From assembly GCF_044324875.1 (NCBI RefSeq), contig NZ_CP172185.1: DNA of 64,000 bases; one strand, 5' to 3'. The notes beneath the pieces are model-generated. The model was not told where the DNA came from. It did no database searches and worked only from the letters and a program-made list of their open reading frames with translations. Numbering within the stretch: position 1 is the first letter of the stretch; every line of letters begins with the position of its first letter. The translations under genes and the position numbers were made by a program. The stretch comes from Escherichia coli. GTDB taxonomy: Bacteria > Pseudomonadota > Gammaproteobacteria > Enterobacterales > Enterobacteriaceae. This document shows positions 4,509 through 54,203 of the stretch, in pieces.

Positions 4509-4599
4509 GTAACCACTATGCACACACAAAAAAACCGCTTGCCATGCCGCAATCAGTCAGGTTACATTTCCGCTGCACCTCATAAAACGGGTGCCGGGA

Positions 4600-4813
4600 T
4601 TGCAACCCCCGCTGACAACTACAGCGCACAACCGCGCCAGCGGTTTTTTTGTGCGTACCGTATCGCCACGTCTTTTTCGCGCCAGAATTATGGCGGGGCG
4701 TATGGGGCCGACTTCGGTCGGGCCGGTTTCTGTAGTTGCCGGTGGTTGCAACCCTGTACGTCTCGCCACCCAGAATTGCAACCTCTGGATGGTGAGTTTT
4801 CAAAACTTGCAAC
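4600..4813. promoter_or_regulatory. Four TTGCAAC sites (one a perfect 10-bp palindrome GGTTGCAACC) upstream of ORF 4829
   Basis: TTGCAAC at 4600, 4746, 4776 and 4807; the last three are about 30 bp apart. Confidence 0.35.
4609..4650 (+). terminator. Intrinsic terminator-like hairpin plus T7 inside the early operon
   Basis: CCGCTG (4609-4614) pairs with CAGCGG (4638-4643), followed by TTTTTTT (4644-4650). Confidence 0.45.
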
Positions 4814-35379: not shown

Positions 35380-35428
35380 GAACAATAATCAGGTTGAGAG
35401 GACATCATAAGGCAAGTAGATTAACGGC

Positions 35429-35523
35429 AGATACTTTCCCGCAACCACGGGCAAGTATTTAATTATCCATGATGAAATATGACCTAAATTGTTTTTTGCC
35501 CGCCGGAAAGCGGGCATTTTTTT
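35429..35523 (+). ncRNA. sRNA-like unit a (phage-proximal): promoter TTGAGA-N17-TAGATT (35394-35422) to terminator T1
   Basis: Conserved hexamers at exact 17-nt spacing; GCCCGC-cggaaa-GCGGGC plus T7 at 35498-35523; no conserved ORF. Confidence 0.35.
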
Positions 35524-35737
35524 ATTCTTTTGTGGTTATGGGGTCATCAGGAACCACGTGCAGATTATATTTTTGTTTTTTTGGCGTTCCTCCGGCAGCA
35601 ACGAGTTCATCAATAAGACACTGACACGCCTGAACATCCCGGGCATGTCTTAGTTTCACCTTTATTGATTTAACCTTATCCTCACCGGAGGAGAAATGCA
35701 GTTCAATCTCAATATCGTTTCTTCGGAACAATCTCAT
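35522..35737 (-). CDS. Hypothetical 71-aa protein (module X, the only intact copy)
   Basis: ORF MRLFRRNDIEIELHFSSGEDKVKS.... Two decayed paralogous copies lie downstream. A palindromic operator lies upstream. Confidence 0.5.
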   Translation of the reverse strand: MRLFRRNDIEIELHFSSGEDKVKSIKVKLRHARDVQACQCLIDELVAAGGTPKKQKYNLHVVPDDPITTKE

Positions 35738-35832
35738 ACGCCCCCCTGAATATATCAGAAATGCTAGTATCGAAAAATGAGAAAACAGTTAGACAGGAGA
35801 AACATATTAACACAAATCATTTATACCTATAG

Positions 35833-35850
35833 ATGAAATTATAATTTCAT
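35833..35850. promoter_or_regulatory. Perfect 18-bp palindrome ATGAAATTATAATTTCAT upstream of the 71-aa gene
   Basis: Self-complementary. Related palindromes occur in copies 2 (TAGATGAAATTGCAGTTTCATCTA near 37000) and 3. Confidence 0.5.
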
Positions 35851-36093
35851 TCATGAATATGATAGATAACTATATTGTGAACAAAATGAAAAATGGCTAA
35901 ATTAAAAATGGGCATGGAGGAATGCCCGGTTATCAATATAATGTGACGTAGATCATTGTTTTGCCCGCCGGAGAGCGGGCATTTTTTTTGCGCCTGCCAT
36001 CGAGGCGCCTTCCCTGGCGCACACAAAGCAGCCCTGATTTTCCATGAAAACTTCAGGGTTGAGCTGCGGGCACAAAGTGAGTAGATTAGCTAC

Positions 36094-36189
36094 GGGTACC
36101 TCCCCCTGACAACAGGAAGGGTGTCCATTATCCATGATATACAAACGAAAAGTCTTGTTTTTTGCCCGCCGAAGCGCGGGCATTTTTTT
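36094..36189 (+). ncRNA. sRNA-like unit b: promoter TTGAGC-N17-TAGATT (36059-36087) to terminator T3
   Basis: Body contains CATTATCCATGATATACAAACGAAAAGTC; terminator at 36164-36189. Confidence 0.35.
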
Positions 36190-36234
36190 ATGCATCAGAC
36201 AAGATACAGCCCACCCCAACTGACACCTGAAATA

Positions 36235-36263
36235 TTGCCGCAACAAAAAGAAACAGTTAAATT
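36235..36263 (+). promoter_or_regulatory. hok mRNA promoter TTGCCG-N17-TAAATT
   Basis: Places +1 near 36270, the start of the GGGTGCCTT element that pairs with AAGGCACCC at 36613-36621 (fold-back). Confidence 0.5.
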
Positions 36264-36315
36264 ACGCGCGGGTGCCTTTCGGCTGATGGCCGGAGGGAAA
36301 ACCTGAAGGCCGGAT

Positions 36316-36549
36316 GTGGAAAGGCCCCGGAAAACATTTCTGTTTAACCGAGGCCCTAACCGCATTACCTTGACAAGTGAAAGGTTAGCGCCTCTCCGGA
36401 AAAGGAGCAAGTGCTATGTCGCAAAAATCGCTTACGGCCATCACGTTCTGCGTGACGGCAATCCTCATCATCTGGATATTGCACGGTTCGCTGTGCGAAA
36501 TACGGATGAGCTTCTGGGGAGCGGAGTTTGCGGCGTTCTTACAATGTAA
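36316..36549 (+). CDS. mok: mok-like overlapping leader frame
   Basis: 77-codon frame (GTG start) overlapping the hok frame, as in hok/mok/sok loci. Confidence 0.4.
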   Translation: MERPRKTFLFNRGPNRITLTSERLAPLRKRSKCYVAKIAYGHHVLRDGNPHHLDIARFAVRNTDELLGSGVCGVLTM

Positions 36550-36556
36550 GAAGTAA
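36416..36556 (+). CDS. hok: Hok/Gef-family type I toxin (46 aa), not in ORF track
   Basis: MSQKSLTAITFCVTAILIIWILHGSLCEIRMSFWGAEFAAFLQCKK. TM helix plus SLCEIR and AAFLxC motifs as in Hok/HokA. AAGGAG RBS. Confidence 0.8.
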   Translation: MSQKSLTAITFCVTAILIIWILHGSLCEIRMSFWGAEFAAFLQCKK

Positions 36557-36644
36557 GGAAACCGCGACGGGGGAGCAATCCCCCGTCAATCGGTTGCCAG
36601 GGTAAGGTCGATAAGGCACCCTATCTCACAGACATGAACAACAA

Positions 36645-36677
36645 ACCCGCAGCATAAAAACTGCGGGTTTTCTTTTT
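36645..36677 (+). terminator. Intrinsic terminator downstream of hok
   Basis: ACCCGCAG-cataaaaa-CTGCGGGT followed by TTTCTTTTT. Confidence 0.65.
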
Positions 36678-36808
36678 GGTGTCCTCACCGACTTGAAACA
36701 GTGATCAGACTATAAGACAAAGCCCGCAATGTTGCGGGCTTACTCTACCTCTCGAAAATGTGGTCACTGCGTGGACATACGCTGATACAAATCCTTTATA
36801 TCAATAAA

Positions 36809-36907
36809 TTAAATCTTTGTTTTTTTCATCAACAATGATTTAACCTTATCCTCACCGGAGGAGAAATGCAGTTCAATCTCAATATCGTTTCTGTGGAACA
36901 GCCTCAT
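36809..36907 (-). pseudogene. Truncated copy 2 of the 71-aa gene
   Basis: MRLFHRNDIEIELHFSSGEDKVKS, then divergence and a stop after 32 codons. Confidence 0.6.
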
Positions 36908-37265
36908 AAGACAACCTCCTGAATTCATCAGAAACACAGTCAACTGAAAACCAGAAAGCAGACAAACAGTGGACACACATTAATACAAATCATTTATACC
37001 TATAGATGAAATTGCAGTTTCATCTATAACATGACAGGTAACAATATTGTGAAAAAACTCAAAACTCGTTAGATTAAAGACGGACAGAGCAATGCTACTT
37101 TATCAATAACATGTAACCTGTACTTCCTTATTTTGCCCGCCGAAGCACGGGCATTTTTTTTGCGCCTGCCATCGAGGCGCCTTCCCTGGCGCACACAAAG
37201 CAGCCCTGATTTTCCATGAAAACTTCAGGGTTGAGCCAAAAGCACAAAGACAGTAGATTAACCAC

Positions 37266-37359
37266 GGGTGCCTTCCACCTGACAACAGGAAGGGTGTCCA
37301 GTATCAATGACAGACAACTCACATTGCTGTTTTGCCCGCCGGAAAGCGGGCATTTTTTT
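37266..37359 (+). ncRNA. sRNA-like unit c: promoter TTGAGC-N17-TAGATT (37231-37259) to terminator T5
   Basis: Hairpin CCTTCC-N11-GGAAGG; body CAGTATCAATGACAGACAACTCACATTGC; terminator at 37334-37359. Confidence 0.35.
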
Positions 37360-37563
37360 ATTCTTTTGTGGTTATTGGGTCATCAGGAACAACATGCAGA
37401 TTATGCTTTGATTTTTTTGGTGTTATTACAGCAGCAACGAGTTTATTAATAAGACACTGACATGCCTGAACATCCCTGACATATCATAATTTCACTTTAT
37501 TTTTTTAGCTTGTCCTTTCTGGAGCAGAAATATCTCAACATCGTTTCTGTGGAACAACCTCAT
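37358..37563 (-). pseudogene. Decayed copy 3 of the 71-aa gene
   Basis: Homologous over its length to 35522-35737 but with an internal deletion and stops (MRLFHRNDVEIFLLQKGQAKKIK*). Confidence 0.6.
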
Positions 37564-37914
37564 TTGCCCCTGAATGTATCATAAATATCAGCATCGGAAA
37601 ACCAACAGCAATACAGAAGAAACATGTTAATGCAAATCACTTATACCTATAGATGAAATTACAGTTTTGTTCATAAATATGATAAGTAACTATATTGTGA
37701 ATAAAATGAAAACTAGCTAAATTAAACGTGGGCATGGTGGAATGCCTCGTAATCAATAATACATGATCCGTACTTCCTTGTTTTGCCCGCCGGAAAGCGG
37801 GCATTTTTTTGGCGGTTACCATCGCCTCACCTTCCTGGTTCACATGAAGCAACCCTGATTTTCCATGAAAACTTCAGGGTTGAGACAAAAGCACAAAGAC
37901 AGTAGATTAACCAC

Positions 37915-38007
37915 GGGTACCTTCCACCTGACAACAGGAAGGCTGTCCAGTATCAATGACAGACAACTCACATTGCTGTTTTGCCCGCCGGAAAGCGGGC
38001 TTTTTTT
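37915..38007 (+). ncRNA. sRNA-like unit d: promoter TTGAGA-N17-TAGATT (37880-37908) to terminator T7
   Basis: Near-identical to unit c. Confidence 0.35.
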
Positions 38008-38111
38008 GGCAGTTATCATAGCCGCACCTTCCTGGCACATATGAAGCAACCCTGATTTTCCATGAAAACTTCAGGGTTGAGACAAAAGCACAAAAACAGT
38101 AGATTAACCAC

Positions 38112-38209
38112 GGGTGCCTGCCACCTGACAACAGGAAGGGGTGTCCATTATCCATGATATACAAACGAAAAGTCTTGTCTTTTGCCCGCCAAAGCGCGGG
38201 CATTTTTTT
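38112..38209 (+). ncRNA. sRNA-like unit e: promoter TTGAGA-N17-TAGATT (38077-38105) to terminator T8
   Basis: Near-identical to unit b. Confidence 0.35.
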
Positions 38210-38420
38210 ATGCATCAGACAAGATACAGCCCACCCCAACTGACACCTGAAATATTGCCGCAACAAAAAGAAACGGGTGCCTTTCGGCTGATGGCCGGAG
38301 GGAAAACCTGAAGGCCGGATGTGGAAAGGCCCCGGAAAACATCTGTGTTTAACCGAGGCCTGACCCTTCCTACCGTGACAAGTGGAAGGTTAGCGCCTCT
38401 TTGTAAAAGGAGCAAGCGCT

Positions 38421-38561
38421 ATACCGCAAAAAACGATTATTGTTGGCATTTTATGCCTGACAATAACCCTGGTCATCTGGATGGTCCACGATTCGTTATG
38501 TGAATTCAGCTTTGATATCTGGGGAGCGCGTTTTGCGGCGTTCTTGCAGTGTAAACCGTAA
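38421..38561 (+). pseudogene. Second hok-family frame with ATG replaced by ATA and the promoter -10 deleted
   Basis: IPQKTIIVGILCLTITLVIWMVHDSLCEFSFDIWGARFAAFLQCKP. A 15-nt deletion relative to copy 1 removes TAAATT. Confidence 0.6.
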
Positions 38562-38711
38562 GAAACCGCAGCGGGGGAGAAATTCCCCGCTATCCGGTTG
38601 TTGGGGTGGGCCGATATGGCGCCCTTTCCCTGTAGAGACAAAACAAAAAACCAGATTTGCCCGCCATTGAGAGGGCTTTTTTGTCACCCTCACCAGTGAG
38701 GGCATCATCAT

Positions 38712-38939
38712 TCAGAGGCGCGTAAGCCACCCGGCGTTAACATCCTGCCTGTCAACCCTGGCCGCAGAGTCTGAACGGCAGGTACCGGAAGGAGTACCAA
38801 AAACATCCCTGACAAGTTCCGCCACCTTCCCGATATCATCAGGTGTCACATTCCTCACCTCGGCCGTGATCCGTGGCGTACCATCATCGTTAACAAGAGT
38901 GGCTTTAAAGCTGGTGCGAAGGGAAAACAACATCAACAT
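38712..38939 (-). CDS. Hypothetical 75-aa protein
   Basis: ORF with GGGAGGGG RBS; no motif recognised. Confidence 0.4.
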   Translation of the reverse strand: MLMLFSLRTSFKATLVNDDGTPRITAEVRNVTPDDIGKVAELVRDVFGTPSGTCRSDSAARVDRQDVNAGWLTRL

Positions 38940-39137
38940 CCCCTCCCTTTGGTTCGTTGCACTGACGGCACGACACCATCAGGAAAAAGAAAAGCCCACA
39001 ACGTCAGTATTGTGGACTTTTTTCTTCAAAGATGGACATTATCTGGACACATGAAAATAAAATCCATTTATTTTCATATAGTTAAGTACCATGCAAAAGC
39101 GCCCGCAGGCGCTTTTTAGATTCAGAAAAATTGGGTA

Positions 39138-53808: not shown

Positions 53809-53896
53809 GGTGAGGTGTCCGAGTGGCTGAAGGAGCACGCCTGGAAAGTGTGTATACGGCAACGTATCGGGGGTTCGAATCCCCCCCTCACCGCCA
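53809..53896 (+). tRNA. serW: tRNA-Ser (GGA anticodon)
   Basis: 88 nt, GGTGAGGTGTCCGAGTGG...long variable arm...GGTTCGAATCCCCCCCTCACCGCCA; anticodon loop cuGGAaa. Confidence 0.95.
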
Positions 53897-53938: not shown

Positions 53939-54056
53939 GCATATTGCACTCCAGGGGGGATGAGAAGCCCCGACCGGGGTTCGACAACTGGCGCAGCCAG
54001 TTGGACAGACCACGAACACAGTGAGTGGGCTGCCCGCAGGGCGAGCGAAGCGAGTC

Positions 54057-54118
54057 AATCCCCCCTCACCGCCATATTTAAAGAAAAGCTCGTACGAAAG
54101 TACGAGTTTTTTTCGCAT
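54057..54118 (+). repeat. Degenerate second copy of the serW 3' end plus terminator
   Basis: AATCCCCCCTCACCGCCATATTTAAAGAAAAGCTCGTACGAAAGTACGAGTTTTTTTCGCAT versus 53878-53943, about 90 percent identical. Confidence 0.8.
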
Positions 54119-54203
54119 TTTATCTGCCTGTACGGCAGTGAACGGTATAAAAATCGAGTTTTTCTTTCGGTTGGCTTTCTAAGCTGCCTGTACGGCAGTG
54201 AAC
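54116..54203 (-). CRISPR. Orphan type I-F mini-array: 2 repeats, 1 spacer, no cas genes in window
   Basis: Minus strand GTTCACTGCCGTACAGGCAGCTTAGAAA (54203-54176), 32-nt spacer (54175-54144), degenerate terminal repeat GTTCACTGCCGTACAGGCAGATAAAATG (54143-54116). AT-rich leader-like sequence at 54204-54400. Confidence 0.8.

Follow-up and report, generated by a model that had tools for sequence, protein, structure and literature searches.

We analysed a window of 64,000 nucleotides (nt) from Escherichia coli (contig NZ_CP172185.1 of assembly GCF_044324875.1) and found that the stretch from 36235 to 36677 is very probably a type I toxin-antitoxin module of the hok/sok type, which forms part of the cargo of a P2-like (P88/Xuanwuvirus-type) prophage and lies between its ogr gene and attR. 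We put the probability of this reading at about 0.88. An earlier note on this DNA had described an intact hok-type locus here, and the locus (hok1 below) does appear to be intact: it has its own promoter, an mRNA that folds back on itself, a terminator, a putative Sok gene and a Hok peptide under strong purifying selection (pN/pS = 0.11 across about 46 distinct relatives). The coordinates of all features are collected in Table 1.

Table 1. Features of the hok1 locus and its surroundings (positions in the 64,000-nt window).
Feature	Coordinates	Strand	Basis
hok promoter: −35 TTGCCG (36235–36240), 17-nt spacer, −10 TAAATT (36258–36263)	36235–36263	+	read; conserved in relatives
Predicted full-length hok mRNA, 408 nt	36270–36677	+	RF01794 position 1 at 36270; terminator end at 36677
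tac element (mRNA nt 1–15); predicted to pair with fbi in full-length RNA and with ucb once 3'-trimmed	36270–36284	+	fold; invariant in 52 relatives
ucb-like element GAAAGGCCCC (nt 50–59), alternative partner of the 5' end	36319–36328	+	fold of trimmed RNA; Rfam consensus
fbi-like fold-back element (nt 337–352), core AAGGCACCC at 36613–36621	36606–36621	+	fold, conservation
hok Shine-Dalgarno GGAG, 8 nt 5' of ATG	36404–36407	+	predicted pairing with CUCC (nt 124–127)
hok CDS, 46 aa	36416–36556	+	Pfam PF01848, phrog_251, pN/pS, RefSeq WP_000078913.1
Intrinsic terminator: 10-bp stem AAACCCGCAG/CTGCGGGTTT, then TCTTTTT	36643–36677	+	terminator scan
77-codon "mok-like" frame, GTG start	36316–36549	+	overlaps hok; not conserved, no coding constraint
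Sok promoter: −35 TTGCTC (36410 to 36405), 17-nt spacer, −10 TAACCT (36387 to 36382)	36382–36410	−	read; sokC-like position
Predicted Sok RNA, about 61 nt	36314–36374	−	homology to curated K-12 sokC via Rfam positions
Second, degenerate hok locus (hok2)	38275–38690	+	Rfam and alignment
Type A units, five copies	35394–35523, 36059–36189, 37231–37359, 37880–38007, 38077–38209	+	
Type B terminators, three units	35962, 37134, 37784	+	
ORF fragment, three copies, start MRLF(R/H)RNDIEIELHFSSGEDKVKS	35522–35737, 36809–36976, 37492–37563	−	
attR core of the P2-like prophage (= serS terminator)	39095–39109	.	repeat of att core

Judged by its sequence, the 46-aa peptide belongs to the Hok/Gef family. 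It reads MSQKSLTAITFCVTAILIIWILHGSLCEIRMSFWGAEFAAFLQCKK, with the N-terminus MSQKSL, and the features first noticed in it, namely the frame, a hydrophobic stretch taken as a transmembrane helix and the SLCEIR and AAFLxC motifs, were all found again: residues 6–23 (LTAITFCVTAILIIWILH) are hydrophobic, as expected of the one N-terminal helix of the family, and SLCEIR and AAFLQC are both present. Alignment to the Hok/Gef profile, which the earlier note had proposed as a check, gave a match to PF01848 (HOK_GEF) of 29 bits against a cut-off of 22 (E = 8.3 × 10−7), with peptide residues 7–44 on positions 5–42 of the 42 in the profile. The PHROGs search returned phrog_251, "MokW-like host killing", at 77.9 bits. 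The closest NCBIfam model was HokA (NF007290), whose 30.7 bits fall below the equivalog cut-off of 89. The peptide is 39% identical to K-12 HokA and 28% identical to HokC. The gene had been called missed by the ORF track, which holds for the first-stage track only; in RefSeq/PGAP the ORF carries the name Hok/Gef family protein (WP_000078913.1), and it adjoins an ogr/Delta-like zinc-finger gene.

Escalera-Maurer et al. have surveyed 32,532 Hok loci in RefSeq, and found that more than 80% of 1,264 Hok peptides share the residues M1, C16, T18, L30, C31, E32 and E41 (10.1101/2025.08.07.668861). All seven conserved residues occur in the window peptide (M1, C12, T14, L26, C27, E28 and E37, with a constant offset of 4), and its C44 agrees with the rule of C or Y at logo position 48.

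The hok promoter had been proposed as TTGCCG-N17-TAAATT with +1 at 36270, and it reads exactly so, with 6 nt between TAAATT and the GGGTGCC that begins at 36270. The architecture TTGCCG-N17-TAGATT/TAAATT-N6-GGGTGCC is kept in about 50 related loci, and position 1 of RF01794, the Rfam model of the sense-strand hok leader, falls exactly on 36270. This model aligns end to end (positions 1–157) on 36270–36429 with 46.2 bits (E = 2 × 10−8), below the gathering score of 59; K-12 hokC scores 118 bits. Only 8 of its 12 hexamer positions agree with the sigma-70 consensus, and the promoter is absent from the scan listing for this reason. We counted the RF01794 score below gathering, and the weakness of both the hok and the Sok promoters by consensus, against the main reading.

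The minimum free energy (MFE) of 36270–36677 is −181.2 kcal/mol (z = −9.5 against shuffles), and in this fold nt 1–15 pair with nt 337–352. The pairing of tac with fbi is thus predicted to close the full-length mRNA, which agrees with the 5'–3' fold-back through 36613–36621 that had been suggested for this locus. The core AAGGCACCC has a single + strand copy in the 64 kb. Both strands together hold four matches against 0.59 expected, and the remaining three correspond, in reverse complement, to the 5' ends of hok1, of the second locus hok2 and of one repeat unit. When the RNA was trimmed in silico to 36612 or shorter, nt 1–11 re-paired with nt 50–59 and the downstream leader was remodelled. 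This second helix corresponds to the tac stem in the Rfam consensus structure, and all its pairs are invariant in the relatives.

The conservation of the fold was estimated from viral contigs. A leader pattern of 20 nt was scanned, more than 120 IMG/VR contigs were found, and 53 distinct loci of 500 nt, mostly 74–99% identical to the window, were aligned. These relatives have the promoter, leader and fold-back in common with the window locus. Of the 15 fold-back pairs, 14 persist in at least 50 of the 52 relatives compared, and substitutions on the 3' side are almost all transitions which keep G-U/U-G pairing, within a 3' UTR that is otherwise variable. No two-sided covariation was found in the fold-back among the 52 relatives, because its 5' half is invariant in the collected set; this was likewise counted against the main reading.

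A Sok gene appears to be present on the other strand. The minus-strand search that the earlier note had recommended located a TTGCTC-N17-TAACCT promoter and, downstream of it, a predicted RNA running from 36374 to 36314 with a hairpin and a U-rich end. Curated K-12 sokC is a 59-nt RNA antisense to the hokC leader, and its 5' and 3' ends, at RF01794 positions 106 and 44, correspond to 36374 and about 36314 in the window. The predicted Sok would begin with the G at 36374, 7 nt past the −10 box, and its architecture is that of SokC: a 5' tail some 20 nt long, a hairpin GGGCCUCGG...CCGGGGCCU and a UUUCC 3' end. The Sok promoter has the same position relative to the hok Shine-Dalgarno (SD) sequence as that of K-12 sokC, and in both loci its −35 box overlaps the complement of the hok SD region. 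The two hexamers are retained in the inspected alignment rows and in every leader variant listed. The leader of K-12 hokC/mokC/sokC, like that of the window, aligns end to end on RF01794.

The hok/sok system of plasmid R1 is the textbook type I toxin-antitoxin system (PMC9841398). The window locus resembles R1 hok/mok/sok (parB) in its small membrane toxin with the conserved residues, in tac/fbi and tac/ucb pairing (predicted for the window) within an mRNA some 400 nt long, and in an antisense Sok (about 60 nt) with a promoter that reaches into the hok ribosome-binding region. With its hok AUG at +147 and not at +174, the window leader is shorter than that of R1 by 27 nt, and it has no conserved Mok ORF. 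The two also differ in that R1 Hok has 52 aa and is plasmid-borne, whereas the window Hok has 46 aa and is prophage-borne.

From the R1, hokC and hokW paradigms we infer the RNA half-lives, the RNase III cleavage and the toxicity of the exact window peptide, and by the same analogy the module would work as follows. A modest constitutive promoter would give a stable mRNA of about 408 nt starting at 36270. Its 5' end (tac) would be clamped on fbi (36606–36621), so that the RNA would be closed and untranslated. Slow trimming of the 3' end past fbi would let the 5' end refold onto nt 50–59 (ucb), remodel the leader and expose the target loop. Sok, of about 61 nt, would then pair with the leader, and the hok mRNA would be destroyed. 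If the supply of Sok ended, by loss of the element or by shut-off of transcription, the longer-lived hok mRNA would be translated, and the 46-aa Hok would enter the inner membrane and kill or arrest the cell.

In R1, hok translation requires that mok be translated as far as the hok SD (PMC9841398). A 77-codon mok-like frame had been pointed out in the window, and such a frame does exist and does overlap hok; however, we found no support for it as a functional feature. Its pN/pS is 1.03 across the set of about 46 distinct relatives. By the Rfam alignment, the window has AUU/UUA where mokC has its AUG, and the GTG at 36316 falls within the very stable tac stem-loop (−35.7 kcal/mol, nt 1–60). Among 46 relatives with an intact hok, 25 have no ATG, GTG or TTG leader ORF in any frame that runs through the hok SD; a stretch where an ATG had been suspected in these relatives reads GTGATAGG, with stop codons. 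Hok pN/pS is 0.06 in these 25 compared with 0.16 in the 21 that have a leader ORF, and the AAAGGAG SD is kept in all 46, with or without one. This comparison of relatives suggests that a canonical mok is evolutionarily dispensable for this Hok cluster.

The MFE folds had raised the idea that 3' trimming directly frees the hok SD. It was rejected with the partition function, by which the unpaired probability of the SD is ≤0.03 in both forms. The SD is therefore predicted to be base-paired in the closed as well as in the 3'-trimmed mRNA. Together with the strongest selection being on Hok in the mok-less loci, this means that a different, so far undescribed translation switch would be needed if the cluster did without a canonical Mok. 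The candidates would be a non-canonical AUU start at the homologue of the mok AUG, a short uORF ending just before the anti-SD, or a trans factor. That the abundant 46-aa Hok cluster works without a canonical Mok leader ORF is a tentative idea, and we lean somewhat against it; if true, it would depart from the R1 paradigm of obligatory mok translation. The apparent dispensability of mok is a concrete, testable question for type I toxin-antitoxin regulation. We also counted it against the main reading that canonical mok is not conserved, yet the hok SD stays paired in the predicted structures of full-length and trimmed RNA.

A second hok locus, hok2, lies 2 kb away. Its leader is nearly identical to that of hok1, and 15 nt with the −10 box are deleted. 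Its start codon is ATA (38421–38423, with the frame running to 38561), the conserved E37 is replaced by R, and its terminator is weak, with a short stem. The coding part resembles that of another lineage (L032), which has ATG. The Sok promoter hexamers and hairpin are retained, and the 5' tail of this Sok differs from that of the hok1 Sok. From these features, we read hok2 as most likely a dead hok gene with a Sok that may still be live; this Sok could be an orphan antitoxin that cross-reacts in part with hok1 mRNA. Escalera-Maurer et al. reported that hok "islets" of 2–6 copies within 2 kb hold 13.5% of the chromosomal hok genes of Escherichia (10.1101/2025.08.07.668861).

The decay of hok2 raises the question of whether hok1 is itself a silent relic, that is, a recognisable hok/sok that no longer makes Hok and has no present function, as reported for K-12 chromosomal loci. 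K-12 hokA is disrupted by IS150, and mokA and sokA are annotated as pseudogenes. The absence of the canonical mok start, the hok SD predicted to be paired in every form and the promoter with 8 of 12 consensus positions would all fit a relic. The survey also recounts past tests in which chromosomal hokA, hokB and hokC were unable to mediate post-segregational killing (10.1101/2025.08.07.668861), and we counted these earlier tests against the main reading too. However, every element of hok1 is intact, and Hok is under purifying selection in the relatives, those without a leader ORF included. The 3' partner of the fold-back is preserved where the rest of the 3' UTR varies, and the locus is kept in viable isolated phages. 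We thus consider it improbable that hok1 is a relic, and retain the reading of hok1 as an apparently intact type I module.

The first letters of the window fall within the integrase gene of a complete P2-like prophage, which is inserted between dmsA and serS, where K-12 has only an intergenic region of 238 bp. Because the att core recurs at attR, the ogr-attR stretch 35380–39095, with the hok locus, is phage DNA. The possibility that the locus lies outside the prophage was rejected on the same ground, since the att core at 39095–39109 lies beyond both hok loci. This ogr-attR region is expanded to 3.7 kb and rich in repeats, and hok1 sits in it along with the dead hok2. We found the 3.5 kb around the locus at ≥99% identity in 25 of 5,426 complete E. 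coli genomes, and partial matches in 1,677.

Isolated phages have related loci. In phage P88 a homologous hok follows directly after the stretch that matches ogr, and its product, gp52, is 93% identical to the window Hok. In the P88 record (NC_026014) this ogr-matching stretch, at about 1501–1750, is without an annotated CDS, and ogr appears to be unannotated there. The ogr-plus-hok query also matched the isolated P2-like phages 500465-2, Xuanwuvirus P884B11, PhiR44_2 and Chuche and a Citrobacter phage, at about 82–84% identity, and records of P2-like phages besides P88 have an ogr-type regulator and Hok features under one match. In the Stx phages 933W, VT2-Sakai and 75/02 Stx the hok part is about 79% identical, and it lies beside lom in 75/02 Stx. 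The 46-aa product of the Stx-phage ORF beside lom, labelled "MokW-like host killing", is 70% identical to the window Hok.

This setting is compatible with a role in the lytic cycle instead of in the retention of the prophage: Sok would be lost on induction, and early membrane damage by Hok would give faster lysis and more progeny. The experimental precedent is hokW-sokW of the Stx prophage Sp5, a proven type I toxin-antitoxin system which speeds lysis and doubles phage release (PMC8621323). Phage genomes keep the locus at one fixed cargo site behind ogr, and hok genes are about four-fold enriched in prophages (10.1101/2025.08.07.668861). However, the precedent is another Hok subtype (51 aa) in a RecA-inducible lambdoid phage. 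The window prophage has the integrase, repressor and Cox layout of the P2 type, and P2-type repressors are not known to be cleaved by RecA. No feature in the sequence ties Sok levels to induction. On balance, we regard a lytic aid as unlikely for this locus.

The window locus resembles hokW-sokW in being prophage-borne and in its mRNA start, GGGTGC. The toxins differ in subtype: HokW has 51 aa, starts with MKQQKAM and is HokC/D-like, whereas the window Hok has 46 aa and starts with MSQKSL. We rejected the identity of the two, because primer YO-357 encodes MKQQKAM and HokW has 51 aa (PMC8621323). The term "MokW-like" on 46-aa ORFs is an annotation label, and does not indicate identity with the HokW system.

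Defence against other phages was considered as another role. In this abortive infection or exclusion, an invader that shuts off host transcription would deplete Sok and so release Hok. Pecota and Wood (1996), as cited in the survey, found that R1 hok/sok on a high-copy plasmid excluded T4 (10.1101/2025.08.07.668861); the earlier note's remark on interference with T4 is accurate for that system and, going by the same citation, at that copy number. Cargo positions of prophages often carry defence genes. However, the published T4 effect required high copy number, and hok genes are not enriched near defence systems (12%, compared with 9.4% expected at random; 10.1101/2025.08.07.668861). The flanks of hok1 consist of repeats and small ORF fragments, with no defence genes. 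We therefore judge exclusion of other phages to be quite unlikely, and the reading that we prefer is still that of a hok/sok-type module carried as prophage cargo.

The locus is already known, through RefSeq and phage annotation, as a member of a Pfam/PHROGs family and as part of a catalogued peptide cluster. Escalera-Maurer et al. placed the window-type peptide in cluster 72 and HokA in cluster 93 (10.1101/2025.08.07.668861). Their construct table lists two cluster-72 peptides, 72_1621 and 72_1589; the first equals the window peptide except at 2 of 46 residues (M21I and Q46K, both conservative), and the second is identical to the Stx-phage 46-aa version. They reported that 42 of 45 tested Hok homologues were toxic, and the three non-toxic ones that they name include neither 72_1621 nor 72_1589 (10.1101/2025.08.07.668861). 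Both peptides are thus probably toxic, because they are in the construct table and are not among the three named in the text as non-toxic.

The discovery value of the locus is accordingly small: the gene is annotated, the family is catalogued, and a near-identical peptide is among the toxic ones by the text of the survey. The enrichment in prophages and the two-copy hok "islets" had both been documented before. What is added here is the full anatomy of one prophage-borne locus, as predicted: the mRNA ends, tac, ucb and fbi, and the promoter and RNA of Sok. For most homologues, the survey left Mok, Sok and the mRNA ends unanalysed (10.1101/2025.08.07.668861).

Between ogr and hok2 (35390–38210, + strand) we observed about eight sRNA-like units that are without annotation. 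In type A units, TTGAGx-N17-TAGATT-N6 precedes a putative RNA of about 93–98 nt that starts with GGGUGCC like the hok mRNA; one copy is degenerate. The type A RNA would begin with a stem-loop and end in a strong terminator, with a single-stranded middle part that comes in two subtypes. Type B units differ from type A in the body but share the terminator type. The unit region has 16 terminator-like sites, compared with 3.9 ± 2.3 expected. The units occur in 30 of 5,426 complete E. coli genomes, at 2–7 places in each and never annotated, and in 2 IMG/VR contigs. Isolated phage genomes did not contain them, the matches in species-representative genomes were no more than chance hits, and no Rfam family matches them. 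We rejected the view that they are a general part of the hok module, since they are present at 1 of about 120 viral hok loci. Prophage "Pas" sRNAs, which are described in lambdoid prophages, were considered, and no link to the units was established.

A minus-strand ORF fragment occurs three times in the same region. Its 71-aa copy, a hypothetical protein in RefSeq (WP_001236182.1), has a match to phrog_14142 that is confined to the C-terminal part (positions 72–127 of 128). Together with the A and B units and with hok, the fragments are arranged as three modules in tandem, a pattern suggestive of repeated duplication or recombination in this right-hand part of the prophage. Between hok2 and attR there is a 75-aa ORF (38712–38939, − strand), without annotation in the RefSeq record inspected.

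Other RNA-related elements were observed elsewhere in the window. A lone CRISPR-DR4 repeat match without an array (50 bits) lies at 54176–54203 on the − strand, and a tRNA at 53809–53893 is followed by an RtT element at 53940–54074. In the early region of the P2-like prophage, isrK (60.1 bits) adjoins a C4 antisense RNA (80.1 bits) at 4575–4773 on the + strand, both above their Rfam gathering scores.
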